A stretch of DNA of 64,000 nt from positions 16,926-80,925 of the forward strand of contig JBMONN010000024.1 in NCBI GenBank assembly GCA_049323935.1, in the 5' to 3' direction. The notes beneath the pieces were generated by a model. The model did not search any database and was not told where the DNA came from. It worked only from the letters and a program-made list of their open reading frames with translations. Both the position numbers and the translations under genes were made by a program. Positions 41,099 through 63,328 of this stretch are shown here, piece after piece (position 1 is the stretch's first letter; each line of letters begins with the position of its first letter). Source of the stretch: Thermodesulfobacteriota bacterium (lineage in GTDB: Bacteria > Desulfobacterota > Desulfobulbia > Desulfobulbales > SURF-16).

Positions 41099-41159
41099 TG
41101 GTGCCCGGAGCGAGAATCGAACTCGCACAGCAACGAGTGCCGAGGGATTTTAAGTCCCT
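41099..41159 (-). pseudogene. 3' half of tRNA-Leu(UAA): displaced att copy, not a complete tRNA
   Basis: The minus strand reads AGGGA-CTTAAAA-TCCCT (anticodon arm, UAA), long variable arm CGGCACTCGTTGCTGTGC, T arm GAGTTCGATTCTC, acceptor 3' strand GCTCCGGGCA + CCA. No D arm or 5' acceptor strand lies upstream (ATTATGATATCAT instead). Confidence 0.8.
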
Positions 41160-41527
41160 ATGATATCATAATCTAATTATATGTTTTTATGGAAATTTTA
41201 TTTCACAACAATGCCATTTGTTCCATTTTTGTTCCATTTAGTATATTTTCACCGAGTACGAAACAACAAATCCGAAAATAAAAATGTGAGGCCAGACTGG
41301 TTCTTTCAAGTCTTTCAATTATTAGCGCCGGCGAGAAAGCCAGCCAATTCCAGCGGTGAGAAACGCCGCCACTGCCAACGGTCACGAACCCAGCCATTAT
41401 CATTTTCTTACCTGATTTTTTCATTTTTCTCTATTTACTTCCTCGCATTTTGTTCATCTGGTTCTTTTCCTTCCTGATTTTCCGTTTCTTCCCCAAGGTT
41501 GTATGGTGTCCCGCGGAGGTGGGAGCC

Positions 41528-41959
41528 ATGTCGAACCTGAAGATCCGCTGCGCCCATTGCAGATGCCTGTTTCTCCCCAACCCGCGGGTAAAAAATCAGT
41601 GCTATTGCGGTAAAAAGCCCTGTCAGGCGGCGAGGAAGAACCGCTGGTTAAAGCAGAAGCTGGCCACCGATGATGATTATCGTCTCATGAAAAAGGAGTG
41701 CCAGCAAGACTGGGCCAGGCGACATCCTGCATACTGGCGGCAATACCGCCGAAGGCGCCAGCAATATACGGACAGAAACCGGCAGCAGCAGAAATTTCGT
41801 CGACGCGGTGTGCTGGCCGTTACCAAAGTTGTCAAGAAAGACGCGTTAGATGTATTTTATGACGTAAAACCGGGAAGATACTTCCTGGTCCCCTTTACGG
41901 GGAAAAACGTTGCAAAGAAAGACGCGTTAATGGTCAATATTTCCCCAATTACAGCATGA
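41528..41959 (+). CDS. hypothetical Cys-rich, highly basic protein
   Basis: GGAGGTGGGAG RBS before ATG 41528. N-terminus CAHCRC-x14-CYC-x5-C (zinc-ribbon-like), Arg/Gln-rich middle, duplicated KKDAL peptide. No family recognised. Confidence 0.4.
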   Translation: MSNLKIRCAHCRCLFLPNPRVKNQCYCGKKPCQAARKNRWLKQKLATDDDYRLMKKECQQDWARRHPAYWRQYRRRRQQYTDRNRQQQKFRRRGVLAVTKVVKKDALDVFYDVKPGRYFLVPFTGKNVAKKDALMVNISPITA

Positions 41960-42012
41960 TAGGAGGATTGACGCCAAGAAAGACCCGATAGCTTTTTGCT
42001 TCCTGCCCAGGC

Positions 42013-42456
42013 ATGATTCGCCGCAGGAGGTGCATCATGATCAGCAAACATCCCCTTGTGCCCCAGCGGCTTCGCAGTGTCAGCGGAAGCTTCGCCTGCA
42101 TCGAGCATCGCTTTCTGCGTGATGGTTTCTGGGCCGTCCTCACCCAGCATGAACTGCTGCTCTATTTCTTTTTGCTCCTGGCCGCTGACCGGCAGGGGCT
42201 CTCCTATTACGGCTACGACAGAATCTGCACGCTGCTGCAGATCTCACTCGATGAGTACATTCTCGCCCGGGACGGATTGATCGCCAAGGACCTTGTCGCC
42301 TTTGACGGCCGGCTTTTCCAGGTCCTTTCCCTGCCTGATGTTGCTTGCCGGCAGCCGCCCCGGCTGCTTGACAACCGGCAGGATATGATCCGCCACGATC
42401 CGGCCACCATCAGCCAGCTCATTACCACGAGCCTTGGAGGAGACCATCATGATTGA
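42013..42456 (+). CDS. hypothetical protein, possible winged-helix DNA-binding protein, translationally coupled to istA
   Basis: 147 aa; its stop at 42454-56 overlaps the istA ATG at 42449. ELLLYFFLLLAADRQGLSYYGYDRICTLLQISLDEYILARDGL resembles a wHTH/DnaD-like segment. No family assigned. Confidence 0.45.
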   Translation: MIRRRRCIMISKHPLVPQRLRSVSGSFACIEHRFLRDGFWAVLTQHELLLYFFLLLAADRQGLSYYGYDRICTLLQISLDEYILARDGLIAKDLVAFDGRLFQVLSLPDVACRQPPRLLDNRQDMIRHDPATISQLITTSLGGDHHD

Positions 42457-43927
42457 ACAACGGACCATCTTCGAGATTCACCGCCTGGCCAACGACGGAC
42501 TTTCCATCCGCCAGATCGCCAAACGGGTGGGCCATGATCGCGCCACCGTCGCCGAGTATCTGCGCGAGCCCCAGCCCAGGCGGCCGACCTTTACCCGACC
42601 GAGTAAGCTTGACGCCTTCACCGGGGAGATCGACAGCCTCCTGGAGCGAGACCCCGATGTCAAGGCCACGGTGATCATGCAGCGGCTGGCCGCCAAGGGC
42701 TTTACCGGCAGGCTTTCCATTTTACGGGCGCACCTGCGCAAGGTCCGCAAACGGCACGCCAGGGCCTTCATCCGTTTCGAATCGGCCCCCGGCGAGCAAT
42801 GCCAGGTGGACTGGGGCCATTTCGGCAGTCTCGACTACGGCGCAACCTCGCGCAAGCTTTACTGCCTGGCGGTCATCGAGAGCCACAGCCGCATGCTTTA
42901 CCTGGAGTTCACCCATTCCCAACGCCAGGAAGCACTGCATCGCGGGCTGCTTAATGCCTTTCTCTTTTTCGGCGGCTCACCGAAAACCCTGGTGCATGAC
43001 AACATGCTCACCGCCGTCATCGAGCGCGACGGCCCGCTGATCCGTTTCAACGGGGCCTTCCTCGATTTTCTGCGCCCCTTGAAGATCACGCCCCGGCCCT
43101 GCAACGTCCGGCAGCCTCAGGAGAAGGGCAAGGTTGAAAAGGGCGCCATCCATTTCATCCGCCACAATTTCTGGCCCCTGCGGACCTTTACCGGCCTGCG
43201 CGACGTGCAGGCCCAGGCGGACTTGTGGCGCGACCGGGTGGCCAATGTCAGGGTGCATGCCACCACCGGCCAGCGGCCGGTTGACCGTATCCAGTCAGGC
43301 GCCATGCAACCCTTGCCGCAGCTTACGGCCGATTGCCGGGATACGGCGCTTGCCAAGGTGCACACCGATTTCTGCATCCACTTCGACGGCAACACCTATA
43401 CCGTCCCGCCCTGGTTGATCGGCAAAACCGTGGTCGTTAAGGCCGATCATTACCGGCTGACCATCTACTTCAAGGAAAAGGCCGTCGCCGAACATGCGCG
43501 CTCCTGGCAACGGCGGCAACGCCTCGAACTGCCGGCCCATCGCGAGGCGGCCAGAAAACACCTCAGCAACCACTACCGCTCCGCCGAGGTCGCGGCCTTG
43601 CTCAGCCTGGGAGAGGCGGCCAAGGACTACTTCGAACGGATGGCCGGCGCCAATCTGCCGGTGCGGAAAAACGTGCAACGCCTCCTCTATCTCAAAGATG
43701 AATACGGCGCCCATGCCATCCTCGAGGCCATGAAACGCGCTGCCGCCCATAATGCCTACGGCGCCCACTATATCGAAAACATCCTCTACCAGCAGATGAC
43801 CCCGCAGCGCAGCCATCCGCCCGTCACCCTCAAACAGCAGGAGCTCAACCGCATCCGGCTCGAAGAGCCCTCGCTTATGGATTACGATAGCTTTGTCGTC
43901 AAAAAAAGGAGCCGGGGCCATGACTGA
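42449..43927 (+). CDS. istA: IS21 family transposase IstA
   Basis: N-terminal HTH (GLSIRQIAKRVGHDRATV), DDE core (QVDWGHF..., HDNMLT..., ...GKVEKG...). Classic position before istB. Confidence 0.9.
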   Translation: MIEQRTIFEIHRLANDGLSIRQIAKRVGHDRATVAEYLREPQPRRPTFTRPSKLDAFTGEIDSLLERDPDVKATVIMQRLAAKGFTGRLSILRAHLRKVRKRHARAFIRFESAPGEQCQVDWGHFGSLDYGATSRKLYCLAVIESHSRMLYLEFTHSQRQEALHRGLLNAFLFFGGSPKTLVHDNMLTAVIERDGPLIRFNGAFLDFLRPLKITPRPCNVRQPQEKGKVEKGAIHFIRHNFWPLRTFTGLRDVQAQADLWRDRVANVRVHATTGQRPVDRIQSGAMQPLPQLTADCRDTALAKVHTDFCIHFDGNTYTVPPWLIGKTVVVKADHYRLTIYFKEKAVAEHARSWQRRQRLELPAHREAARKHLSNHYRSAEVAALLSLGEAAKDYFERMAGANLPVRKNVQRLLYLKDEYGAHAILEAMKRAAAHNAYGAHYIENILYQQMTPQRSHPPVTLKQQELNRIRLEEPSLMDYDSFVVKKRSRGHD

Positions 43928-44657
43928 TCGAGAACGGCTGCGCAAAAAACTTCACGATCTGCGCCTGCACGCCATGGCCGCTCAGCTTGACGAAATACTT
44001 GACCGGGCCGGCGCCAAAAACAACGGCCCGGCCGAGGTGCTGGCCAAACTGGCCGACATCGAAGCCGAACACCGCTGGCATAACAGTATTGCCCTGCGCT
44101 GGCGGCAGTCAGCCCTCAATGAAAAACTCACCGTCGACCAGTTCGACTTCCACCATCACAGCTCCAGAAATGAGCAGAAAACCCGTCTCCTCAACCTGTT
44201 CTCTCTCGACTTTGTCAGCCGGCACATGGATGTCATTCTCATCGGCAACCCCGGCACCGGCAAGACCTTTATCGCCAAGGCCCTTGCCTATGCCGCCTGC
44301 AACGCCAATATCAAAGTGCTCTTCACCACGGCCATGGACATGATCAACAACCTGATCGCCGCCGAGGCTGATCGGTCATTGCTCAAAAAACTCACATTTT
44401 ACCAAACTCCGGAACTCCTGGTCTGTGACGAACTCGGGTATCTTTCGCTGGGCCAACAGGGATCAAACCTCTTCTTCCAGGTAATCAGCCACAGGCATAA
44501 ACAAAAGTCGACCATGCTGACGACTAACCTGCCGTTCACTGACTGGGGGAATGTCTTCGATTCCACTACCGTGGCCACCGCCATCGCTGACCGACTCGTA
44601 CACAACTCGGAGGTCCTTGTTCTGGGAGGAAAAAGCTATCGCAGAAAGGAAAAATGA
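43920..44657 (+). CDS. istB: IS21 family helper ATPase IstB
   Basis: Walker A GNPGTGKTF, Walker B LLVCDELGY. AAGGAG RBS; the ATG overlaps the istA end. Confidence 0.9.
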   Translation: MTDRERLRKKLHDLRLHAMAAQLDEILDRAGAKNNGPAEVLAKLADIEAEHRWHNSIALRWRQSALNEKLTVDQFDFHHHSSRNEQKTRLLNLFSLDFVSRHMDVILIGNPGTGKTFIAKALAYAACNANIKVLFTTAMDMINNLIAAEADRSLLKKLTFYQTPELLVCDELGYLSLGQQGSNLFFQVISHRHKQKSTMLTTNLPFTDWGNVFDSTTVATAIADRLVHNSEVLVLGGKSYRRKEK

Positions 44658-44952
44658 GATAAAAACTGAAATTTAGAAGACGAAAAGACTGCCGGAGCGT
44701 CTGCCTTGAAGGCGGCCGGAAACGAGGCATTGTGCGCTTAAGTCACCGGTATTGCGCGGTGCTGCGTCCACCGGCGATGATGGCGGGATTTTGTTCCGCT
44801 GCTTTTGGCGGGGTTTCTGCTCGCTGTCAATATTCAATTGCCTTAAATGCCAGTCGCAGGAATACTACATCATGACGATTACTCGTAAAATATCTTAAAC
44901 GGCCTGATAATTTTCCCATCCTCGCTTCTCTCCCATTGATCCGCTGAAAGTT

Positions 44953-45537
44953 TTACGCGGACCTCGGCACATGAACTTTTTTATCAGCCAACCTTTTTTC
45001 CAAGTTGGCAATCCGTGCGTCCATCTCTTTCATCTGGTTCCGCAACGCCAGGTTTTCTTTTTTCGTGCTGACTGCTTCATGTAATGCATCGACCAACTCA
45101 GCCAGGACAGTACTGTAAGGTGTGTCCGACTCCAGGATCTCAACCACCTTCATAATTTTTTCAGAAATACTTGGCTGGTTCTCACCGGATTTAAGAGGAG
45201 ACTTTGAATCGATGGCTCTTCTCTCGCTCTTCGCCATATCGGTGCGCATCGGCGTTGTATGCACCCCTCCCCTATTCCCTGCCGAAATTATTATATCTTC
45301 TTCTCCCCCAAGAATACGACGGCCAAGGGCAAGCATATCCTCGTAAGCCATATTGAAGTAGCTGGTGATTTTAGCCCGCACTTCTTCTGACCCCGGCTTT
45401 CGGCCTTTGACAATGGCATTCAGGTAGCCACGGTCAATATTCTGTTGGCCAGCCAGTCGACTTTGCGCACCTCGTCCCTCTTGAGTCAAGAGATATGAGA
45501 GCGCCACATGAAACTGATTCGAAATTGATTGATCCAT
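44953..45537 (-). CDS. XRE/cI-like HTH transcriptional regulator with C-terminal coiled coil
   Basis: HTH QSRLAGQQNIDRGYLNAIVKGRK. No S24 peptidase domain. Heptad-like C-terminus (LRNQMKEMDARIANLEKRL). Confidence 0.7.
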   Translation of the reverse strand: MDQSISNQFHVALSYLLTQEGRGAQSRLAGQQNIDRGYLNAIVKGRKPGSEEVRAKITSYFNMAYEDMLALGRRILGGEEDIIISAGNRGGVHTTPMRTDMAKSERRAIDSKSPLKSGENQPSISEKIMKVVEILESDTPYSTVLAELVDALHEAVSTKKENLALRNQMKEMDARIANLEKRLADKKVHVPRSA

Positions 45538-45648
45538 AGGTCAACAATAGACCATATGCTCAATAAATAAAAGAAAAAACGGATATTTCGGTTTTTTTCG
45601 CACATTTTAAGTTGACAAAATAGACTACTTTTAATAACAAAATTTGCC
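45538..45648. promoter_or_regulatory. divergent control region between cI-like and Cro-like genes
   Basis: Perfect -35 TTGACA at 45612. Two AATAGAC boxes (45546-52 and 45619-25), 73 nt apart; the second lies in the spacer after the -35. Confidence 0.4.
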
Positions 45649-45870
45649 ATGAAGACTACATCAAAGAAAATTACTCAGCGAGAGATAGCCAAGTCGGCCA
45701 AAATCGGTCCTGATTTTTTGAGTCACATTATTCGAGGCCGGCGGCGCTGTCCTCCGGCAGTTGCTCTTCGCCTGGAAGAAGCAACCGGCATCAGCAGGGT
45801 GACCTGGGTGTGGGGAAGTCCTGAGGAGATCAGGTCAGCACTAACTGAACACGCCTCAAAAGCAGGTTAA
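45649..45870 (+). CDS. Cro/XRE-like small HTH protein
   Basis: 73 aa, ITQREIAKSAKIGPDFLSHIIRGRR HTH; divergent from the cI-like gene. Confidence 0.65.
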   Translation: MKTTSKKITQREIAKSAKIGPDFLSHIIRGRRRCPPAVALRLEEATGISRVTWVWGSPEEIRSALTEHASKAG

Positions 45871-45873
45871 ATA

Positions 45874-46197
45874 ATGGATATCGAATCCCGTCTCGCAGCC
45901 ATAGAAGAGAGCCAGCGCGAAATACTCAAGTTGTTGAGCAAGGGGAACAATTCCCTGCCGATGACCATGGGACTCAAGCAGGCGGCGGCCTATGCCGGCT
46001 ATTCACCGGACCATTTCAGGCGATTGGCTGTTGAGCAACGAATTATTCCTTTTTCCAGACCTTCAGGCCAACAAAAAGGCAAGTTACTGTTCAGGAAAGC
46101 GGATCTGGATAGGTTTCTGGACTCATCAACAAAAGGAAAAAAAGAGCTGAAGCAACCAGGACGCAAGAGAAAATCAAAAGATATTCGGTTGTGGTAA
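45874..46197 (+). CDS. excisionase/MerR-superfamily HTH DNA-binding protein (Xis/AlpA-like)
   Basis: 107 aa, MGLKQAAAYAGYSPDHFRRLAVEQRIIPFSRP...LFRKADLDRFL is the typical helix-turn-helix_17/excisionase pattern. Confidence 0.6.
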   Translation: MDIESRLAAIEESQREILKLLSKGNNSLPMTMGLKQAAAYAGYSPDHFRRLAVEQRIIPFSRPSGQQKGKLLFRKADLDRFLDSSTKGKKELKQPGRKRKSKDIRLW

Positions 46198-46203
46198 GGC
46201 AGC

Positions 46204-47079
46204 GTGGAGACAGTTGACGATAGTTTCATGAACGGCCTGAAGGGACTGTCACCAGAGCTTCAGAAAAAAATAAAGGACCTGGCCGAAAACCCACAGCTGC
46301 CTGTCTGGCATGAGGAGACCCGTGGCGTACCAAATCTCTGTTTGCGATCAGCCCTCTTTGGCGTAATTCAACGCGGTCGCAGAAAGGCGGTAAAGGGTGA
46401 GCTGGTTGCCGCGGTAAAGGGACTTGATATCCGCTATACCGGCTGGCGTCTGGATCAGGGTGATTTTGACGTTTTGGCTCATGCACTCCATCTTGCATCA
46501 CGACAGCAGGAACAATCACCTTCATGCCATGTGCAGTTTTCAGCTAAAGGGTTTCTGCGAGGAATCGGCCGAACGTCCGGTAAATCCGGGCGGGACTGGC
46601 TAAAAGATTCATTACGGCGTTTAACCGCCTCGGCTGTTGAGATCAAGGCGGAAATCCGGCATGGATGCTGGGCGGAATCTTACACCTATGCCGGTTCGTT
46701 GATCGATGAATTTTACTACAACGTTCGGGAAAGAACCTATTTCCTGAAAATAAACCCTAAACTCGCTTCCCTGTTTGATGCCGGCTGGACCATGTTGCAG
46801 TGGCCACAAAGAATTCTTCTCAAGACCGATCTGGCTAAATGGCTGCACGGTTTTTATGCCAGTCATGCCGTCCCTTATCCGGTGAAAGTTGCAACATTGA
46901 AACATTTATGCGGTTCCGAATGCAATCGGTTGTCTGATTTCCGGGGCAAGTTACGAACCGCATTGGAAGAACTGAGCAAATGTGGCGTTCTTGAATCCTG
47001 GGAAATAGACCGGCAAGACAAGGTTCATGTGCAAAAGAAGAAAAATATTAGCGGCAATGACAAAAATCAGGGGGCATAG
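46204..47079 (+). CDS. TrfA-like plasmid replication initiator
   Basis: GVPNLCLRSALFGVIQRGRR, IRYTGWRLDQGDFDVL, INPKLASLFDAGWT and WLHGFYASHAVPYPVKVATL match remembered TrfA family blocks. Iterons lie immediately downstream. The start may be ATG 46228. Confidence 0.7.
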   Translation: METVDDSFMNGLKGLSPELQKKIKDLAENPQLPVWHEETRGVPNLCLRSALFGVIQRGRRKAVKGELVAAVKGLDIRYTGWRLDQGDFDVLAHALHLASRQQEQSPSCHVQFSAKGFLRGIGRTSGKSGRDWLKDSLRRLTASAVEIKAEIRHGCWAESYTYAGSLIDEFYYNVRERTYFLKINPKLASLFDAGWTMLQWPQRILLKTDLAKWLHGFYASHAVPYPVKVATLKHLCGSECNRLSDFRGKLRTALEELSKCGVLESWEIDRQDKVHVQKKKNISGNDKNQGA

Positions 47080-47239
47080 CGGTCGCATGGGGTGGGCATA
47101 ACAGTCGCAGCGACGGGGCATAGCGGTCGTAAAGGGTGGGCATAACGGTCGCGCATGGGGGGCATAACAGTCGTAAGGGTGGGCATAGCGGTCGCGGAGA
47201 GGTGGGCATAGCAGTCGCACAAAGGGGGCATAGCGGTCG
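47072..47239 (+). repeat. iteron array: 8 direct copies of GGGCATARCRGTCG
   Basis: Copies start at 47072, 47093, 47116, 47138, 47160, 47181, 47203 and 47226 (spacing 21-23 bp, about two helical turns), overlapping and following the rep stop codon. Confidence 0.85.
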
Positions 47240-47289
47240 TAAATCAAAATTAACAAATTTCCCGAAACACTTGCAGCCAAGGAGATTGC

Positions 47290-47340
47290 GGAGGATGGCC
47301 GCATCCTCCTAATCATTTTTAATCTTATTTTAATCTTTTG
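47290..47340 (+). other. GC hairpin followed by AT-rich repeats (candidate terminator / DNA unwinding element of oriV)
   Basis: GGAGGATG gccg CATCCTCC (47290-47309), then TAATCATTTTTAATCTTATTTTAATCTTTT with TTTTAATCTT twice. Confidence 0.4.
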
Positions 47341-47372
47341 TGCATGGGGCATGTAAGAGGCCTGAAACAAAA

Positions 47373-47906
47373 ATGACACGACCAGTCGCAAATATTCAGC
47401 AAACAGACAGCAACGAAATGTGGGCAATGGCAATGCAGTGGGTCTCGGGCAACCGCAAACTCATACGCCAGATTGCATCGCCCTATATCCGGCACATGGC
47501 GGCAGACAGCAATGATCTCTTCCAGGAGGCGGCTATAGCTGCCTACAAAGCGCTGATCTCTTCACAAAAAAAGGAAAAACCAAATCAGTTTGTTCCCTTC
47601 TTCCGGGTCATTTTCAAAACAAACTGCATCAGGCTGGCATCGGGAATTCAGACGGTGCAAAGCCTGGAAGATTATCAACTCCCTTGTCCAGAAAAGCCGG
47701 AGGAGTCGGATGAACTGGAAACCGGCAGGATTGAAGAGGCATTGCAAGCCGTCAGTAAACGGCAGCGGGAAATCTGCATCTGGCTTTTGCAGCAGCCGGA
47801 ACCGGTCAGCACCCCGGATCTGGCCAGGGAGTTCAAGGTCAGCCGGCGACATGCCTGCCGCCTGATCAGCAGCAGTATTGAGCGCATTTCGGGAACGGCT
47901 CGATGA
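47373..47906 (+). CDS. sigma-70 family (ECF-like) RNA polymerase sigma factor
   Basis: Region 2-like DSNDLFQEAAIAAYKAL...FFRVIFKTNCIRLA and region 4 HTH SKRQREICIWLL...STPDLAREFKVSRRHACRLISSSIERI. Confidence 0.6.
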   Translation: MTRPVANIQQTDSNEMWAMAMQWVSGNRKLIRQIASPYIRHMAADSNDLFQEAAIAAYKALISSQKKEKPNQFVPFFRVIFKTNCIRLASGIQTVQSLEDYQLPCPEKPEESDELETGRIEEALQAVSKRQREICIWLLQQPEPVSTPDLAREFKVSRRHACRLISSSIERISGTAR

Positions 47907-48361
47907 ATGTGACGATCACGGAATACGCGGCAGCGTCGCTCATCCCCAAACGCATTCTCCGCTATCTGCACCGTGAAGGAATCATCCAGGATCCTCTCCG
48001 CCCGGAAGACCGGATCGGTCTGCAATTCCTCGAAAAGATCTGGGGCCGGAAAGAGGTGCTTCGAGCTCAATTAACCAAACTCTCCATGAAGGCCCGTCTC
48101 AGTTTTATCAGAACCGCCGACTTCTCAACCAAGTGGGAACGATATGCCTACAGCCGCTTCCGCAACCAGGAGCCGGGGAAAAAGCTGGCCATGCAATCGG
48201 TGATCGAGGAGATCGAAACCACCTTCTTTTTTCGACTGAACAAACAGCAGAGAAACCGGCTGTATAAGATCCGCAACCGGGCCCAGGTTGCCAGGCACCG
48301 GGATAAAATCCTGCCGAAGTTGAACGGCAACCTCTCTTACAGAGCACAAACAAATAAGTAA
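47903..48361 (+). CDS. hypothetical protein with N-terminal MerR-like HTH
   Basis: ITEYAAASLIPKRILRYLHREGII resembles the MerR-type HTH. 4-nt overlap with the sigma gene's stop. Confidence 0.4.
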   Translation: MNVTITEYAAASLIPKRILRYLHREGIIQDPLRPEDRIGLQFLEKIWGRKEVLRAQLTKLSMKARLSFIRTADFSTKWERYAYSRFRNQEPGKKLAMQSVIEEIETTFFFRLNKQQRNRLYKIRNRAQVARHRDKILPKLNGNLSYRAQTNK

Positions 48362-48483
48362 TAAACAGCATTTATTGGCCGCTTACCGGAAAAGAAAAAT
48401 TCAACTCTGCCGGGTAAATCCGGACAAAAAGTTTGGAAGACCGGTCACACGATCAGGAAAAAGAAAACAGAGGTGAGACAACA

Positions 48484-49212
48484 ATGAAAAAAACTCTTCT
48501 ACTGTCAACTGCCTGTTTGTTCTGCTACGCGTCTCTAACCCGGGCCGATACCTGCGGTGACGAGGCTCGTTTCATCCTGCATAGCACCTATCCCTCTTTT
48601 TCCTTCGAAACAGTGAGCCCTACGCCGATAGATGATCTCTGCGAGGTGGCTTCCGAAAAGAACACCATCTATTTCGCACCAAAGACAGGCCATATCATCT
48701 TCGGGGAAATCTGGAGCAAAGAAGGCAGCAACATTACCGCGGAAGAGCAGGAAAAAAGAATTACCCGCTCACTTGACGCCTTGCCGCTTGCCAAGGCGGT
48801 AAAAATCGGCAGCGGCTCCAATACGGTCATCGAGATAACCGACCCTGATTGCCCATATTGCCGCAAAGGTTCAGAATTCTTTGCCGGCAGGACTGATGTG
48901 ACCAGATATATCTTTTTCATGCCGCTCGATCAGATGCATCCCGGCGTCAACCGCAAGGCGGAATTCATCCTGGCCGCCAAGGATCAGGCCAAGGCGTATG
49001 AGCAGGTGATGTCAGGGGCCTATGACCACTCCCCGCTTCCGGAATTCACCCCTGCCGGCTTGCTTGATGAGCACCGAAAGATCGCTGCAGGACTGCGGAT
49101 CAGTTCAACCCCCAGATACTGGATCAACGGTCAGCCGGTATCCGGATTCAACCCCACTCAAATTGAGAAAATTCTCAGCAATACCGGCCGGGAAAAGGCC
49201 GGTGACCATTAA
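48484..49212 (+). CDS. DsbC-like thiol:disulfide interchange protein
   Basis: Signal peptide MKKTLLLSTACLFCYASLTRA; thioredoxin-fold active site DPDCPYCRK. A typical companion of F-type tra operons. Confidence 0.75.
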   Translation: MKKTLLLSTACLFCYASLTRADTCGDEARFILHSTYPSFSFETVSPTPIDDLCEVASEKNTIYFAPKTGHIIFGEIWSKEGSNITAEEQEKRITRSLDALPLAKAVKIGSGSNTVIEITDPDCPYCRKGSEFFAGRTDVTRYIFFMPLDQMHPGVNRKAEFILAAKDQAKAYEQVMSGAYDHSPLPEFTPAGLLDEHRKIAAGLRISSTPRYWINGQPVSGFNPTQIEKILSNTGREKAGDH

Positions 49213-49230
49213 TCTTTACGAGGACATGAT

Positions 49231-49590
49231 ATGAAGAAAGTAAAAAATCCCGTGATCCGTCTTGGCGGCCTGTTCCCCATGGGCTGTAAACACAAGAAAT
49301 CAATCATCACCCTGATGGTTTTCGGGGCGACATGTCTGCTTGCCGCAAGCAGGGCGAATGCCTTCAACGCCCCGGCCGCGGGCACCTTTGCCTTTGATAT
49401 TTACGATATCGGGGTCAATCAGATCCTGAAAGGCCCCATCGGTTTTGCCGCCGGGGTCGGGTCCATGGTGGCCGCCTCGGTCATGGCCATCCGGCAGATG
49501 CTGTTGCCGGCTGCGGCGACCGTGCTTGGCGGCGCCTTTCTTCTCAAGGCCGACAGTGTTGTTACCTCTCTGGGCGCGCTGATCGGGTAA
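49231..49590 (+). CDS. TraA-like propilin (candidate)
   Basis: Long leader ending ...AASRANA|FNAP, then about 70 aa with two hydrophobic segments. Sits directly before traL. Confidence 0.5.
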   Translation: MKKVKNPVIRLGGLFPMGCKHKKSIITLMVFGATCLLAASRANAFNAPAAGTFAFDIYDIGVNQILKGPIGFAAGVGSMVAASVMAIRQMLLPAAATVLGGAFLLKADSVVTSLGALIG

Positions 49591-49595
49591 GCCAG

Positions 49596-49874
49596 ATGTC
49601 GGACAACGTAAAAAGAGCCTTTCCCCAATATCTTTCCGCGCCGTTTCAGATCCTCTGGTACGAAAGCGACGAGCTGGCCCTGTTCATGTTCTTTCTGGTC
49701 CTGGCCCTGATGTACGGCAATGTTTTCTGGTTGCTGCTCATTCCCGGGCCATATATCTACAGCCGGATCAAACGGCAGAACCCCCGGGGTTTTCTCTGTC
49801 ATCTACTCTACATGGCGGGACTCATCAGGATGAAAAATTATCCATCGTATTTTGAGAAGGTTTTCATCGAATAG
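49596..49874 (+). CDS. traL: type-F conjugative transfer protein TraL
   Basis: 92 aa, LSAPFQILWYESDELALF..., one TM segment, RGFLCHLLYMAGL motif; synteny traL-E-K-B. Confidence 0.8.
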   Translation: MSDNVKRAFPQYLSAPFQILWYESDELALFMFFLVLALMYGNVFWLLLIPGPYIYSRIKRQNPRGFLCHLLYMAGLIRMKNYPSYFEKVFIE

Positions 49875-49880
49875 GCCGCC

Positions 49881-50438
49881 ATGCACATGAGTATTTTCCT
49901 CCAGAAAACCAGCAACCTGTTCACTGAAAACAGGCTGCTGAAATTTGTGATCGTCGTGCTTACCATGGCCATGGTGGTCAACTCCTTGCTGGTGAACCGG
50001 GCGATCAAATACCAGCGGGTCATCCTGATCCCGCCTAAAATCACCGGCAGTATAGAATTTGTGGAAGGGAAACCCTCTGACCAGTACATCCGTGATCTGG
50101 CCCGGAGAATGGTGAGTCTTGCCGCCACCTATTCACCGGCCACAGCCAGGAATCAATTTGATGAATTCCTCGGATTCTACGCTCCCGACGCCTACCCCGA
50201 GGCCGCCAAAGCCTGGTATGCCCTGGCCGGCCGGGTTGAGGAAAGCCAGGTCAGCACGGTCTTTTATCTGCGCAACCTGATCCTGGACAGCAAAAGTCAG
50301 CGCCTGGAATTAAGCGGCGATCAGCGGCAGTTTGCCGAGGACCGGCTCATTGAATCCGGCCGGAAGACCTATGAGGCCAGATACAGTATCGAGGACGGCC
50401 GGTTTTTCCTCATCTCGTTTCTGGAAAAGCATCCGTAG
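49881..50438 (+). CDS. traE: type-F conjugative transfer protein TraE
   Basis: 185 aa, N-terminal TM (LLKFVIVVLTMAMVVNSLL), then RVILIPP...; size and position as TraE. Confidence 0.8.
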   Translation: MHMSIFLQKTSNLFTENRLLKFVIVVLTMAMVVNSLLVNRAIKYQRVILIPPKITGSIEFVEGKPSDQYIRDLARRMVSLAATYSPATARNQFDEFLGFYAPDAYPEAAKAWYALAGRVEESQVSTVFYLRNLILDSKSQRLELSGDQRQFAEDRLIESGRKTYEARYSIEDGRFFLISFLEKHP

Positions 50439-50459
50439 CGGCGGAAGTGGAGGGATAAG

Positions 50460-51206
50460 ATGTTTAAATTCTGTTCGATGATAATCATACTGGCCCTGTT
50501 TGTTGTTGCTCCTGTTCTGGCCGACCAACTCACCGGCCCGATTCCGCCGGAGGTAACGACCGCGGTGGATCTGTCCTCTTCCGATGTCAACCGGATCAAT
50601 TGCCCCGGTACGATCAATGATCTGATTTTTTCCAAGGAAAAAGGGATTGAAGGGCATTTTGTGGGGAGTAACGCCTTTGTCAAATTTGCCATCACCGTAG
50701 AAGGTGATGAAAAACTCTACGCGGATACGCCCAGCGAGCTATTCGTCAGCTGCAACAACACCATTTATACCCTGATTGCCACGCCTAAAAGAATCCCTTC
50801 CGTCACCCTGCGCCTGGCACCCTCTCCATCCCAGGACCTGAAACAGAATATCGACCACTACCAGGCCCTGCCTTTTGAGAAAAAGGTGCTGCAGCTGGTG
50901 CGCGAAGCCTACCTGCAGGAGTATCAGGAGAGCTACCGGATAGCCGCGGCTGACGTAGAAGTCAACATCTCCGCTGATTTGACCGCCCGCCTGCAAAAGA
51001 TCGTGGATGTTGAAGGGGTGGGCCTGCGCTTGAAGGAATATCTGGTACGACCGACTGCTGACCAACCTGTCAGTATCACGGAAAAGGATTTCCTGAAATC
51101 CCGGCTGGGTGAACGGATCATTGCCGTGGCGGTCGAAGACCATACCATTGGGCCGGGCAAGCCGTCCCGTGTCTTTATTGTCGAGCAACGGGGAGAGGAG
51201 TCGTGA
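50460..51206 (+). CDS. traK: type-F conjugative transfer protein TraK (VirB9-like)
   Basis: Signal peptide, SSSDVNRINCPG motif; size and synteny. Confidence 0.8.
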   Translation: MFKFCSMIIILALFVVAPVLADQLTGPIPPEVTTAVDLSSSDVNRINCPGTINDLIFSKEKGIEGHFVGSNAFVKFAITVEGDEKLYADTPSELFVSCNNTIYTLIATPKRIPSVTLRLAPSPSQDLKQNIDHYQALPFEKKVLQLVREAYLQEYQESYRIAAADVEVNISADLTARLQKIVDVEGVGLRLKEYLVRPTADQPVSITEKDFLKSRLGERIIAVAVEDHTIGPGKPSRVFIVEQRGEES

Positions 51207-52378
51207 GCCTGAAAGAACGTTTTAATTCTCTGAGCCCTCTGCGGAAGAAAATCTGCATCTGGTCCCTGGTAGGCGCGGCTATGCTGATTATCGTGGTCGC
51301 GGGATATAAGACCAGCCGGAATCCGCAATCGGAGTCAACCGCGAGACTGGAAAAAACCCGGGAGATTTCCCTGGACCCGGATCTGATCGAGAAAACCATG
51401 CTGCGGGAACAACGCAAAGAGATCGAGAACATGCAGGCCCAGATCAAAAAACTCGCAGATGATGAGGAAGACAGGCGGCAGTCGGAAAATTTTCCACCAC
51501 CAATTCCAGCCGAAAACCAGTTCCCGGAGATCCCTTCCGCTGACCAGGTGGAACAATCCGCCTCCTCACCTTATTTCGGTACCCCTGTTTCCCCCAGATT
51601 CCCGGCTCCGCCGATGCCGCAGACTCCGCCGCCTCCAATGGAAGAAAAAGTCATCGGCGGCATTGGTATCCTCTCCAACCAGAGCGCCCTGTCTCCGGTT
51701 GTTGCTGACCAGGGGGATAAAAAAAAAGAGAACCGGACGGTCTATCTGCCGCCATCATTTATGGAGGCCATGTTGCTGACCGGTTTCGATGCTTCTACCT
51801 CGGGGGAAGGCAAGAACAACCCGGAACCGCTTCTGCTGCGCATCCAGGCCCCGGCGGTACTGCCCAATGATGTCAAAGCCAATCTACGGGGCTGCTTCAT
51901 CATTGCCGAGGCGGTCGGACGGCTCAATAAGGAACGGGCCGATGTGCGACTGGTGTCCTTGTCCTGCATCGGCCGCAACGGCCAGGCGGTGATTGATACC
52001 ACGGTCAAGGGCTTTGTGACGGACAGCGACAGCAAGGTGGGGCTTTCCGGACGGGTGGTTTCCAAAATGGGGGCCGCTACCGCCAGGGCGGTGGTGGCCG
52101 GTATTTTCGGCGGTGCGGGTAACGCCCTGCAGGCTTCCTCCCTCACCCAATCGACCTCGGCCCTGGGCACCACAAGCTTTGTTGACAGTGATCAACTGGC
52201 CAAGTCGGCGGCTGGCGGCGGTCTGGCCGAAGGCTCAAAGACCCTGCAGGAACTCTATCTCGATCTGGCCAAACAGGCCACGCCGGTGATCGAGGTCGGG
52301 GCCGCCAAACAGGTGACGGTGGTCATTTCGGAAGGGAAGCAGTTGGAAATTAAGGAGTTCGAAAGAGAAACACTGTAG
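51203..52378 (+). CDS. traB: type-F conjugative transfer protein TraB (VirB10-like)
   Basis: N-terminal TM, Pro-rich linker (PPPIPAENQFPEIP...PPMPQTPPPP), C-terminal TrbI/VirB10 beta-domain. 4-nt overlap with traK. Confidence 0.8.
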   Translation: MSLKERFNSLSPLRKKICIWSLVGAAMLIIVVAGYKTSRNPQSESTARLEKTREISLDPDLIEKTMLREQRKEIENMQAQIKKLADDEEDRRQSENFPPPIPAENQFPEIPSADQVEQSASSPYFGTPVSPRFPAPPMPQTPPPPMEEKVIGGIGILSNQSALSPVVADQGDKKKENRTVYLPPSFMEAMLLTGFDASTSGEGKNNPEPLLLRIQAPAVLPNDVKANLRGCFIIAEAVGRLNKERADVRLVSLSCIGRNGQAVIDTTVKGFVTDSDSKVGLSGRVVSKMGAATARAVVAGIFGGAGNALQASSLTQSTSALGTTSFVDSDQLAKSAAGGGLAEGSKTLQELYLDLAKQATPVIEVGAAKQVTVVISEGKQLEIKEFERETL

Positions 52379-52976: not shown

Positions 52977-53442
52977 CGTTGTCGTCCCACAATTCTTTCG
53001 GCATATTTCGGATCAAGGCATCCACTTCCGCTTCAATCGCCTTTTTCTGTTCGGCGGCGGAGAGCTGTTGCGCTTCGAGAAGCATCGTGTGCGAGACCCT
53101 TGCCAGCCGTTTCCCGGCAAGAATTTCCGCGCGCCGGTGCACAATAGCAGCCAGGCTGTCACGAGGCAGCAAGGCATAGACAAAAACGCAATCCAGGGCC
53201 TCGGCAGCCTGGCGCATGGTTTTGATGGTAACAGAATCACTCAGTTCTTTCTTCTCCAGGCTGGTAACCCATGGTGGAGAAACCCCAAGGCGCTGGGCAA
53301 ACTGTCTCCCCGACATCCCCAGGGCTTCTCTGATGGCACGCAGCCAGCCTTTGGCCGGACGTTGTACGTCGCGCAAACATGAGAGGCGGGCAAATGTTGT
53401 TTCCAACTGCTCCTGTATCAGTCGTCTATGAAGAGGCTTCAT
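52966..53442 (-). CDS. XRE-type HTH partner of Fic ('mobile mystery protein A' type)
   Basis: HTH LRAIREALGMSGRQFAQRLGVSPPWVTSLEKKE. 158 aa; coupled to the Fic gene. Confidence 0.75.
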   Translation of the reverse strand: MKPLHRRLIQEQLETTFARLSCLRDVQRPAKGWLRAIREALGMSGRQFAQRLGVSPPWVTSLEKKELSDSVTIKTMRQAAEALDCVFVYALLPRDSLAAIVHRRAEILAGKRLARVSHTMLLEAQQLSAAEQKKAIEAEVDALIRNMPKELWDDNDAV

Positions 53443-53688
53443 TTTATTAACCTTTAGATTAATTATTGTTTCATCTATATTAATCTATAAATTAATTATT
53501 TCAACACAAAATTAATACATAGGTTAATATAACGCAGAATAAACCATAATCAGCTTCGTTTTTATTCAAAAAACCAGCCCTCTCTTTCCAGGTGGTGGCA
53601 CATGCCGTTTATCCTTTTAAGGTCATCCCCTCGAAAAAGAGAAGAAAAGCCTTTTTTCCAGACAATCCATATTCCGGAAACTTTACTG

Positions 53689-59160: not shown

Positions 59161-59210
59161 ATGGATAAAATTACTTACACAAGTTAATAAGTGTAAGGAT
59201 ATTTATCCAT
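59161..59210. promoter_or_regulatory. 50-bp near-perfect palindrome overlapping the abiEi start codon (candidate AbiEi operator)
   Basis: ATGGATAAAATTACTTACAC - aagttaataa - GTGTAAGGATATTTATCCAT. The 20-nt arms match at 17 of 20 positions. The right arm ends in the ATG at 59209. Confidence 0.5.
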
Positions 59211-59829
59211 GGAAAAACGTTCGGAACAACAAACTGCTCATGATAAAGCAATGCTGATCCTGAAAGAGCATGGAGGAACCCTGCGAACAGGCGAGGCTCT
59301 CAAGGCCGGAATTCACCCAAGGGTTCTTTACTCTCTTCGGGATCAAGAAAAAATCGAACAGGTATCGCGTGGCGTATACAGACTTTCCAACCTGCCCCCT
59401 ATATCAAACCCGGATCTCGTATCCGTCGCCCTTCGGGTTCCCAAGGCTGTGATTTGTCTGATTTCAGCACTTTCTTTCCATCACCTCACAACCCAGGTTC
59501 CTCATAAGGTTGCCATTGCGCTTGAAAGAGGGACTGAATCCCCCAGGATTGATTTTCCTCCTGTTTCCATTCACCGGTTCACCAAGGAAGCCTATTATGC
59601 CGGCGTCGAAAAACACGAAATCGATGGGGTGGAAATTCTCGTCTATAGCCCGGAAAAGACAATTGCCGATTGTTTCAAATTCCGCAACAAACTGGGGCTC
59701 GATGTCGTCCTGGAAGCTCTCAAACTCTATAAGGAAAGGGGGAGACTCAATACAGAAGAACTGATGCGGTATGGGCATATATGCCGGGTGTCGAAGATCA
59801 TGAAGCCATACCTGGAGGCGATGGTATGA
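59209..59829 (+). CDS. abiEi: type IV toxin-antitoxin system antitoxin AbiEi
   Basis: N-terminal wHTH LRTGEALKAGIHPRVLYSLRDQEKIEQVSRGVYRL. 206 aa; ATGA overlap with the next gene. Confidence 0.8.
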   Translation: MEKRSEQQTAHDKAMLILKEHGGTLRTGEALKAGIHPRVLYSLRDQEKIEQVSRGVYRLSNLPPISNPDLVSVALRVPKAVICLISALSFHHLTTQVPHKVAIALERGTESPRIDFPPVSIHRFTKEAYYAGVEKHEIDGVEILVYSPEKTIADCFKFRNKLGLDVVLEALKLYKERGRLNTEELMRYGHICRVSKIMKPYLEAMV

Positions 59830-60743
59830 ATGGAAAAACTCCGAAAAATATTGCCGCCTCGGTCCGTCAACGCTTGCTCAACAAGGCCAGACACGACAAG
59901 CGCCCCTTTAATGAACTGCTGCAATTCTTTGCCATTGAGCGTTTTCTATTCAGGTTGTCGCAGTCACCTCATGCGGAAAAGTTTATTTTAAAAGGCGCAT
60001 TGATGCTCAGAGCCTGGCAGGCCCCCTTCTTTCGGCCAACCATGGACATAGACATGCTCGGCCGGAACACCAGAAACGAGGTAGAAAAGATCATAAAGCA
60101 GATACGCGAGATCTGCCAGGTTTCGGTTGAACCTGAAGACGGATTGCAATTCGATACGGGCAATATTGCCGGGGAGAGAATCACCGAGGACGCCGATTAT
60201 GAAGGCGTGCGGGTGCGATTTACCGCCCGGCTTGAAACGACCAGAATTCCAATGCAGATTGATATCGGCTTTGGCGACGTGGTTGTCCCAGGTCCCCAGG
60301 TGGCGATCCTTCCCGCTATTCTGGATTTTCCCCCACCTCAACTGATTGGTTACAGCCTGGAGAGTGCTATTGCTGAAAAATTCGAGGCAATGGTAAAGCT
60401 GGGCGAATTGAACAGTCGCATGAAGGACTTTTATGATATCTGGCTGCTTTCCAGACAATTCGATTTCATGGGTGAGCGACTCAAGGACGCGATGTCCGAA
60501 ACATTGAAAAATCGTGGGACAAATCTTCCATCCGAAATTGTTGCATTCTCAAATTCTTTCCTTTCGATGAAAAGCGGACAATGGCAGGCTTTTCACAGAA
60601 GACTCGGACAAGAAAACATTCCTGCGGATTTTGCCGAGATCATACGCCAAGTTAAAATTTTCCTTTATCCAATTGTGGAATCCATTCGGTCAGGTATGGC
60701 AACGCCTTCCAGTTGGGAAGCGCCCGGTCCTTGGGAATCATAG
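59826..60743 (+). CDS. abiEii: AbiEii/AbiGii family nucleotidyltransferase toxin
   Basis: SVRQRLLNKARHDKRPFNELLQFFAIERFLFRLSQSP...FILKGALML N-terminal signature, and DIDMLG/DIGFGD nucleotidyltransferase acidic motifs. Confidence 0.85.
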   Translation: MNGKTPKNIAASVRQRLLNKARHDKRPFNELLQFFAIERFLFRLSQSPHAEKFILKGALMLRAWQAPFFRPTMDIDMLGRNTRNEVEKIIKQIREICQVSVEPEDGLQFDTGNIAGERITEDADYEGVRVRFTARLETTRIPMQIDIGFGDVVVPGPQVAILPAILDFPPPQLIGYSLESAIAEKFEAMVKLGELNSRMKDFYDIWLLSRQFDFMGERLKDAMSETLKNRGTNLPSEIVAFSNSFLSMKSGQWQAFHRRLGQENIPADFAEIIRQVKIFLYPIVESIRSGMATPSSWEAPGPWES

Positions 60744-62495: not shown

Positions 62496-63328
62496 AGAGG
62501 ATAACCGTCATGGCCGGGGCGATGATCCTTCTCGCCCTTTATCTTGCTGCCGGGCATGCATTTGCCGGCGGCAAGTCAGTCAATGATCTCAAGATGAATG
62601 ACATCGCCGGCGTTTTGCAGGAGGCTCAGGAGAAAGCAAAGGAACTGCAGCTTTCGGAACAGTACCCGGCGGATGACTGTGGCTGCCAGGATGCGGCAGG
62701 AAAGCTCATGGATAAATTCAACGCACCGGACCATCAGGCCAAGATGCGCGACGAGCAGCAGCGGCTGCGGGAAACCATATTCAAGGACATCCTCACCGAA
62801 TTCATGCCGCAAGGCGAGCAACATTCACCGCCCGATACAGCCTCCAACTCGGCACAACTCTATCTTTTTGTCTCAAGTTCGGTACCGCTCACCACGCTGC
62901 GCAACTATGCGGCCATGATTGACCATGCCCGCTCCGGCCAGGTGACCATGGTACTGCGGGGTTTTGTCGGCGGCATGAAGGAAATCCGGCCTACCATGGA
63001 ATTTATCGGCGAAATCCTGAAAAAAGACCCGGCCTGCGATTTCATGGAAGAAAAATACCCCGCAAGGAGGCATAAATGCGACAGCTACCAGGTGAATATC
63101 CAGGTCGATCCACTGCTTTTCCAGCGCTTTGCCATTGATGAAGTGCCTGCCCTGGCATATTTGCCGGTCAGTGAGAGCGATACCGAAGGAAAGGAGGCAG
63201 AACCGCTGATCGTAAACGGCGATGCGGGCCTGGATTACCTGCTGGAACGAATAAACAGAGAGGCCAAGCGCGCGGATCTCAACAGGCTTATTGCCGCTTT
63301 GCGAGGCAGAACAGGGAATGGAAATTGA
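62480..63328 (+). CDS. trbC: type-F pilin assembly protein TrbC
   Basis: Signal peptide, LYLFVSSSVPLTTLRNYA...VLRGFVGG, IDEVPALAY motifs. Confidence 0.75.
   Translation: MLRVLKRITVMAGAMILLALYLAAGHAFAGGKSVNDLKMNDIAGVLQEAQEKAKELQLSEQYPADDCGCQDAAGKLMDKFNAPDHQAKMRDEQQRLRETIFKDILTEFMPQGEQHSPPDTASNSAQLYLFVSSSVPLTTLRNYAAMIDHARSGQVTMVLRGFVGGMKEIRPTMEFIGEILKKDPACDFMEEKYPARRHKCDSYQVNIQVDPLLFQRFAIDEVPALAYLPVSESDTEGKEAEPLIVNGDAGLDYLLERINREAKRADLNRLIAALRGRTGNGN

Follow-up and report, generated by a model that had tools for sequence, protein, structure and literature searches.

Several integrated mobile elements are known to replicate once they have left the chromosome. In ICEBs1, which relies on relaxase-driven rolling-circle replication, and in TnGBS1/2, which use theta replication, copying of the excised circle stabilises the conjugative element (PMC7826253). 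The replicon of SGI1 (S004-repA-oriV) has its iterons just downstream of rep, is silent in the integrated state, is turned on with excision and then reaches 4-8 copies (PMC7826253), and some yicC-specific SGI1-like islands have a gene for a Pfam TrfA homologue under an inducible promoter (PMC8409611). In plasmid RK2, TrfA binds one strand of the DNA unwinding element (DUE), the 13-mer repeats of which follow the consensus TAAACnTTnTTTT (Wegrzyn et al. 2014, PMC4081077), and the exact sequence of all four repeats is required for TrfA binding and for replication (PMC4081077). Replicating integrated elements, TrfA-encoding islands among them, are thus already established. Here we describe a new example of this known design, located at positions 46204-47341 of a 64,000-nucleotide stretch of contig JBMONN010000024.1 from a Thermodesulfobacteriota bacterium of the Desulfobulbales (the whole stretch is hereafter called the window, and all coordinates refer to it). 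A full-text literature search, incomplete in its coverage, returned no description of this Desulfobulbales family of integrative and conjugative elements (ICEs) carrying TrfA and iterons.

The locus is likely to be an iteron-type (theta) replicon composed of trfA, eight iterons, a variable spacer of ~70 bp and a DUE of three TAATC repeats. It lies in the left-end regulatory region of an F-type conjugative element that is integrated in a tRNA-Leu gene, and it would replicate after excision. Judging from the sequence comparisons presented below, the module probably lets the element copy itself as a circle once excised, and we infer, on good grounds, that the excised state replicates autonomously.

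The trfA gene (46204-47079, forward strand) encodes a TrfA-family replication initiator of 291 residues when read from the GTG at 46204. This is the longest open reading frame (ORF) and its start is ambiguous, the database protein P0001 beginning at the ATG at 46228 (283 residues). The ORF matches the Pfam TrfA family PF07042 at 55.5 bits (E 5.9e-15, cut-off 22) over profile positions 38-281 of 282, and its product is 40-48% identical to those of genes annotated trfA on plasmids (613 plasmid records). By sequence alone, the protein has no match in the PDB, and no NCBIfam model matches it. An AlphaFold (AF2) model was computed (mean pLDDT 73, pTM 0.69), the best PDB matches of which in Foldseek were RctB domains 2-3 (E 2e-8), RepE54, the TrfA-DNA model 9a0w and the Pi-iteron structure 2nra, indicating that the modelled protein has the winged-helix initiator fold shared by RepE, Pi and RctB. 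Thus, the Rep that an initial annotation of the window had called TrfA-like is a real member of the family, as borne out by the Pfam search proposed in that annotation. Homologues number 483, the nearest (60-98% identity) coming from Desulfobulbaceae-type genomes and metagenomes. Across these relatives, dN/dS is 0.06-0.2 and internal stops are absent, even at dS above 1; by this comparison, trfA is under purifying selection. The gene is the third of a tightly packed operon, in which it follows an HTH_3 gene starting at 45649 and an HTH_17 gene starting at 45874 with gaps of 4 bp and then 6 bp.

Eight direct repeats with the core GGGCATARCRGTCG and a period of 21-23 bp occupy positions 47072-47239 of the forward strand (36% AT). 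The eight exact copies start at 47072, 47094, 47116, 47138, 47160, 47181, 47204 and 47226, i.e. with successive spacings of 22-22-22-22-21-23-22 bp, and the first overlaps the final codons and the stop of the trfA ORF. The initial annotation had counted all eight, placing two of them one position too early (47093 for 47094 and 47203 for 47204); the 21-23 bp spacing it reported holds, and the pattern, including its irregular 21/23 step, is kept in relatives. No further copy of GGGCATARCRGTCG was found elsewhere in the 64 kb, even when allowing 2 mismatches, and none of 100 shuffles contained eight matches. In an alignment of 15 loci (alignment A1), the cores are invariant and the spacers between them variable. 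Number, spacing and position of the repeats are kept and, as detailed below, their subtype follows the Rep clade, which together support the view that they behave as iterons of this TrfA.

Downstream of the iterons lies a variable spacer of ~70 bp (47240-47309, forward strand), which is poorly conserved in the same alignment. Its first part (47240-47262) is 83% AT and is followed by a GC-richer part holding a hairpin (47290-47309) with an 8-bp stem and a 4-nt loop. The perfect 8-bp GC hairpin noted in the initial annotation therefore exists, but it is specific to the window and is not a conserved part of the origin: among relatives it is paired in 41.7% of cells versus 41.2% in shuffles, and it is already disrupted in a relative of 98% identity (L022). 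A role of the hairpin as a terminator or as an origin structure was ruled out on these grounds, i.e. because it is unconserved and does no better than shuffles.

The spacer ends at a putative DUE (47310-47341, forward strand), recognised by its conservation and by its match to the RK2 consensus. It is made of three phased TAATC repeats, TAATCaTTtTT (47310), TAATCtTAtTT (47320) and TAATCtTTtgT (47331), and is 88% AT, as against 36% in the iterons. The AT-rich, DUE-like stretch of the initial annotation was described there as containing TTTTAATCTT twice; this sequence does occur at 47317 and 47328, and a TrfA-type DUE is supported, but the stretch is better read as three phased repeats than as two. 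Across the 15 aligned loci, CTAATCaTtTtTAATCTtatTTTAATCtT is nearly invariant after the poorly conserved post-iteron stretch. The arrangement TAATC-N6-TAATC is found exactly once per locus, on the same strand and directly 3' of the iterons, and its single occurrence in the 64-kb window compares with 0.03 expected. The three units fit the RK2 13-mer consensus except at the fourth base. Because of this fit, of the 88% AT content and of its presence in real plasmids (see below), we read the block as a DUE of the TrfA type, and the comparison supports a specific unwinding element, beyond mere AT-rich DNA.

We then set the locus against the IncP-1 plasmids (RK2/RP4 and R751, with R751 used as comparator). 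Likenesses are a Rep of the same Pfam family, eight direct iterons in both (22-23 bp spacing in R751) and an AT-rich DUE of phased repeats ~50-70 bp from the iterons, with TAAACnTTnTTTT in RK2 and TAATCnTTnTT here. In length, the window's protein corresponds to the short TrfA-33 form of IncP-1. The iterons themselves are unrelated in detail (GCCCCTCAAGTGTCA in R751, GGGCATARCRGTCG here); a likeness of 6-7 of 15 positions, seen in either orientation, was judged meaningless. No TAATC motif was found in R751, and so the TAATC block marks a sub-lineage of TrfA rather than all TrfA origins. In IncP-1 plasmids, oriV and trfA lie apart and trfA is under Kor control. Unlike in IncP-1, the iterons of the window begin inside the last codons of trfA, TrfA is less than 50% identical to its plasmid counterparts, the element is integrated, and its transfer genes are of F type, not P type. 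On these sequence features, the element does not qualify as an IncP-1 plasmid.

The closest match in origin anatomy is provided by two small free plasmids, pNWAT02 of Nitrosococcus watsonii (NC_014317, 5.6 kb) and an 8-kb plasmid of Azotobacter chroococcum (NZ_CP066314), in both of which, as in the window, an array of 22-bp period starts from the trfA stop codon. Some 60-70 bp past the iterons, both carry TAATC motifs as the window does, with three copies in pNWAT02 (CTAATC..TTAATC..TTAATC) and two in the Azotobacter plasmid (CTAATC..TTAATC), and the Azotobacter iteron shares GGGATAGCG with the window core. The records of both plasmids annotate no replication protein other than TrfA. The plasmids are set apart by having 5-6 iterons and a TrfA of 41-43% identity, and their replicon comes with no integrase, att site or transfer genes.

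With SGI1, the element shares the general arrangement of an integrated mobile element with an iteron replicon just downstream of rep. The SGI1 Rep is of the Rep_3/IncN2-N3 type and has four iterons, unlike the window's TrfA with eight. SGI1-type islands are mobilisable, depend on an IncC helper and AcaCD, integrate in trmE, yicC or dusA, and are found in Gammaproteobacteria, whereas the window element is from the Desulfobulbales, encodes F-type transfer genes itself, uses a tRNA-Leu site, and has putative regulators and a sigma factor of its own. ICEBs1 uses a relaxase and oriT rather than a Rep-iteron origin; TnGBS elements have a DDE transposase and belong to Firmicutes, and no TrfA/iteron module is described for them in PMC7826253.

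Conservation of the module was assessed in relatives, for which 31 genome loci and 77 metagenome loci that encode TrfA homologues were retrieved; the comparison took in 103 loci. Loci with at least 330 bp downstream of trfA were considered testable for the origin (n = 71). The iteron array and the TAATC block are both present in 67 of these, and the remaining 4 have neither. The 67 arrays contain 2-8 iterons with a mode of 8; 57 contain 6-8, and some are shortened to 2-5. When loci are ordered by TrfA similarity, their arrays sort into a ..TCG or a ..TCA type, each array being homogeneous, typically 7/7 or 8/8. Two relatives are particularly informative in this respect (L017 10001-11140 and L019 2402-3540, compared with window positions 46204-47400): their tra proteins are 95-99% identical to those of the window, while their TrfA is only 71% identical and their iterons are of the other subtype, with similarity to the window resuming directly after the TAATC block. 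Since these two loci share the tra backbone but differ in TrfA and iteron type, Rep and iterons are inherited and exchanged as one cassette, which is what a protein and the sites that it binds should show, and the sequences indicate that this replicon cassette is exchanged between transfer backbones. A specificity link between Rep and iterons is therefore predicted, given that the subtype is homogeneous within arrays, tracks the TrfA clade and is exchanged together with the Rep. Pairs of co-resident elements in MAG150, Desulfopila IMCC35008 and Emb289P4bin76 have different iteron types, or none.

That the element is integrated, as the initial annotation had assumed, is confirmed by its left boundary. 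On the reverse strand, positions 41099-41160 read as a 3' tRNA-Leu(UAA) remnant that begins with the anticodon stem-loop and runs through the terminal CCA, and correspond to attL. The remnant was read from the sequence: it gives a weak, truncated match to the Rfam tRNA clan under relaxed settings (E 0.012), ARAGORN finds no whole tRNA there, and Rfam and tRNA scans of the window return nothing at gathering thresholds. The same remnant is carried by L022 and L001 with unrelated DNA to its left; in L022, the remnant and the DNA that follows it are shared and the left flank is wholly different. In sequencing run X1, the assembly graph branches exactly at 41099-41128, a 30-nt tRNA core, and a second X1 contig of similar depth begins with the same core and has the arm motif described next at 115 nt from the tRNA 3' end, as expected for the other end of the element. 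To the left of ~41 kb, the window encodes housekeeping-type proteins (TolB, a CpoB-like protein, PEP synthase and RlmH), and homology among relatives regularly ends just left of the gene of the putative divergent regulator described below. Two family members reside in the closed 6.3 Mb chromosome of Desulfopila sp. IMCC35008. Together, the tRNA-Leu remnant, the unrelated flanks and the relatives in a closed chromosome place the element, at the level of sequence, in a tRNA-Leu gene of a Desulfobulbaceae-type bacterium.

Next to the remnant, a tandem pair of 11-mers, TTTGTTCCATT, occupies 41217-41239 (forward strand), putatively as arm-type recombinase sites. The motif stands beside tRNA remnants or intact tRNA genes in L001, L008, L012, L015, L020, L022, L028, L037, L073, L074 and other loci, and in one of the IMCC35008 copies the TTTGTTCCATT pair comes after a tRNA-Leu(CAA) remnant. 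The pair probably represents the arm-type recombinase binding sites of the att region. In relatives, TTTGTTCCATT accompanies junctions at tRNA-Leu(CAA) or tRNA-Leu(CAG), and in L037 a junction at tRNA-Arg. The far att end in the closed Desulfopila chromosome was sought with the 30-nt core, which is unique there. In six relatives (L020, L073, L074, L086, L119 and L120), a tyrosine recombinase, the arm motif and an intact tRNA-Leu(CAG) gene stand directly upstream of the regulators and TrfA, with the iterons and F-type tra operon on the same contig.

The left arm of the element is interrupted, outside the replicon, by a 3.5-kb insertion of the IS21 family (41321-44839, forward strand). This insertion encodes IstA (42434-43927) and IstB (43893-44657), with Pfam matches to rve / Mu-transpos_C_2 and IstB_IS21, and has two extra ORFs (41450-41959 and 42038-42434). 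A 7-bp target duplication (TTCAATT) flanks it, and a terminal repeat of 25 bp lies at 41329-41396. The insertion stands between the tRNA remnant and the first conserved gene; L022 lacks it, with 41320 abutting 44840 there. The leftmost conserved gene (44953-45537, reverse strand) encodes the putative divergent regulator, termed cI-like here, with a faint N-terminal HTH and a C-terminal coiled coil; its position and orientation are conserved across the family. It is followed by the first two genes of the trfA operon, both on the forward strand. The first encodes a small HTH_3 (XRE/Cro-like) protein (45649-45870; Pfam E 2.2e-6) in conserved synteny, and the second an HTH_17 (AlpA/excisionase-like) protein (45874-46197; Pfam 28.4 bits, cut-off 27).

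Directly after the origin, a gene for an ECF-type sigma-70 factor (47373-47906, forward strand), conserved in the family, heads the transfer region. It scores 42.4 bits against TIGR02937 (cut-off 42.9, E 5e-11), its Pfam Sigma70_r2 match is weak, and its start ATG is conserved in alignment A1. No sigma-70 promoter is predicted between the origin and this gene. An F-type transfer operon follows, from TraL at 49596 through TrbC at 63328; the transfer genes in the window are those of TraL, E, K, B, V, C, N, U and TrbC, and in two close relatives (L131 and L132) genes for TraF, TraH and TraG_N come next. The predicted mating-pair formation (type IV secretion) system is thus complete when the window and these two relatives are taken together. 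A genome scan based on TrbC returned no relatives, and the exact TraU protein, looked up to extend the contig, had no record. The right end of the element lies outside the window.

A number of observations weigh against a replicon of an autonomously replicating conjugative element, and we consider them here together. DnaA boxes, for which the initial annotation had suggested looking nearby, are absent: TTATCCACA, with at most 1 mismatch, has no match within 12 kb in the window, and among 69 family origins no box occurs at a conserved position, the density being 0.16 per kb versus a background of 0.24 per kb. In this, the origin is unlike those of RK2/R751 and pNWAT02, R751 having, besides an AT-rich region, two perfect boxes next to its iterons, and pNWAT02 a perfect box after its TAATC block. 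DnaA boxes are a feature of the RK2 type and not of every iteron origin, which makes the locus less RK2-like and does not thereby exclude an origin; it may fire without DnaA boxes, or in a host with a divergent box. No relaxase, coupling protein or oriT was found in the window, nor within 10 kb beyond TraU in relatives, and no integrase within the 64-kb window. The cI-like protein has no significant Pfam or NCBIfam match, so that its assignment is weak and a repressor role is suggested by its position, and the HTH_17 protein reaches only 17.7 bits against the excisionase-family domain of NCBIfam (cut-off 28.8). Four relatives (L021, L023, L091 and L092) have an intact trfA under purifying selection without iterons or TAATC block, and in L021 and L023 no tandem array is present within 10 kb on either side of trfA and no origin was found nearby. 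That trfA is kept without this origin hints at a role of TrfA besides firing it.

Read depth adds a further point of this kind. Run X1 is the only run that holds both flank and element at ~99% of words, and depth was taken there as exact-match contig word depth. Chromosomal contigs have depths of 24.8-30.1, and contigs of the element 29.4, 35.7 (trfA and iterons), 31.2 and 36.8 (the part with the insertion sequence, IS). The element is therefore at ~1.0-1.3 times the chromosomal depth, with low-depth related variants sharing words, and shows no amplification. The comparison of island and chromosome proposed in the initial annotation thus gave approximately chromosomal copy number in one informative sample and no sign of an episome, in contigs that do not separate attL/attR from attP/attB, the repeated core being as long as the assembler word. 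In run X9, from another biofilm sample of that study, the IS and the element (41340-52255) are represented by 95-99% variants at depths of 60-250, with chromosome-like contigs at 22-45; as only such variants are present, this depth is not a copy number, and the element family is probably carried in that sample by other, more abundant hosts.

A candidate circular form came from the JGI contig L037, which encodes an identical TrfA and in positions 1-1400 of which a tyrosine recombinase is followed by 49 nt of the 3' half of a tRNA-Arg(UCG) and then by the left arm and the regulator of the TrfA element. Its integrase has relatives (L038-L045) that always lie ~30 nt from an intact tRNA gene (Arg, Lys, Thr or Pro); the anticodon stem is the exact point at which L037 departs from them. 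The junction has the structure of attP, as in a circular element; two elements joined in tandem would give the same picture. We tried to link the L037-type integrase to the conjugative element via L040, the flank of which holds only a methylase and unknown genes. The same int/att system also occurs in L042 (5358-11017), on an unrelated island of 5.6 kb that 48-nt direct repeats bound. Because the L040 flank is uninformative and int/att is shared with the L042 island, L037 is not called attP with confidence. An AAA_21 ATPase gene is part of the L042 island, which also gives a weak match to REP_ORF2-G2P.

With this evidence in hand, other explanations of the locus can be weighed. TrfA and its iterons might have been repurposed, either controlling transcription from the early operon to the sigma factor and tra genes, or acting as an incompatibility or exclusion device that titrates a related incoming Rep. 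The array does occupy precisely the interval from the early operon to the sigma factor at the head of tra, in which no promoter is predicted, and the four relatives with a selected trfA and no origin, the chromosomal copy number and the missing DnaA boxes would all fit. Against this, it is not obvious what transcription control would need the TAATC DUE for. The DUE is nevertheless conserved like the iterons and always occurs with them, it is common to small plasmids annotated with no replication protein but TrfA, it fits the RK2 consensus, and the iterons match those of origins in copy number and spacing; we regard such a repurposing as unlikely. It is very improbable that the locus is a fossil, i.e. 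the non-functional remnant of a TrfA plasmid once fused with an integrative element. Chromosome-level depth, the lack of DnaA boxes and the relatives with 2-5 iterons or none are what one would see in a decaying replicon. A fossil would hardly retain a trfA with dN/dS of 0.06-0.2 and no stops over dS above 1, or iteron cores and a DUE that stayed invariant while spacers diverged; the iteron subtype changes with the Rep, 67/71 loci across many genera still have the module, and neither frameshifts in most copies nor neutral iteron divergence is seen.

Two further explanations were weighed. Were the origin active while integrated, it would amplify the element and its flanks locally, as some prophages do by escape replication. 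The sequence contains nothing to prevent this, and the element depth is ~1.1-1.3 times that of the flanks; the small excess, however, is flat, includes a possibly multi-copy IS and coincides with low-depth variants that share words, and no gradient of depth extends into the chromosomal flank. An unregulated extra origin in a chromosome is also usually harmful, and there is little to recommend firing in place, which we rate no higher than a fossil. An artefact, in which a free plasmid was wrongly joined to a chromosomal contig, is the least credible account of all and extremely unlikely. It draws on the fact that the join runs through the repeated 30-nt tRNA core where the X1 graph branches, and on the integrase-core-left-arm junction of L037, such as a circle would show. 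A partial tRNA gene at a junction is nevertheless the signature of site-specific integration and not of a chimera, assemblies made independently have this end too, at other tRNA-Leu genes and beside different flanking DNA, two copies sit in the closed 6.3 Mb chromosome, and the depth equals that of the chromosome.

For an iteron replicon that serves the excised element, we propose the following course of events. In the integrated state, where depth is that of a single copy, the operon of HTH_3, HTH_17 (Xis-like) and trfA would be off, presumably through the divergent regulator, and the origin silent. Upon induction, the element would excise, the excision helper and TrfA being made together. 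TrfA monomers would fill all eight iterons along a single helical face, open the TAATC element next to them and attach to one strand of it, and the host helicase and replisome would be loaded, apparently without DnaA boxes. The circle could then replicate in theta mode like a low-copy plasmid, so that it is not lost at division and more copies are available for transfer and re-integration, and the sigma factor would switch on transfer. The coupling of replication to excision has a parallel in SGI1, the replicon of which is induced together with excision (PMC7826253).

A broader view, which we put forward tentatively and consider less probable than not by some distance, is that the Desulfobulbales elements are true ICE-plasmid hybrids. 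They would persist as low-copy circles in some hosts, L037 being the circular form, with an origin that fires without DnaA boxes, and the Rep-iteron cassette, swapped at the TAATC block between near-identical backbones, would serve as an incompatibility determinant open to exchange, so that several related elements could reside in one genome.

The element offers a well-resolved example, predicted to be self-transmissible, from relatives of sulfate reducers and cable bacteria, and adds to the growing evidence that ICEs and plasmids are not sharply separated. The ~70 origins form a large, natural comparative set in which Rep, iterons and a sequence-specific DUE co-vary, apparently co-evolving, and are exchanged as a cassette. 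The compact layout that they share with small gammaproteobacterial plasmids, i.e. iterons from the stop codon, a spacer and three TAATC, here in a TrfA origin without DnaA boxes, could seed vectors for the genetically poorly accessible Desulfobulbales. For annotation, it should be kept in mind that a trfA gene and iterons on a contig do not make that contig a plasmid.

Two further features were observed within the transfer region. An AT-rich 33-bp tandem repeat of 1.9 copies (53438-53500) lies in the 450-bp gap before traV and could be a promoter or oriT-like. Further downstream, between traN and the traW-like gene/traU, the tra operon contains an AbiEi/AbiEii toxin-antitoxin (abortive infection) pair at 59209-60743.

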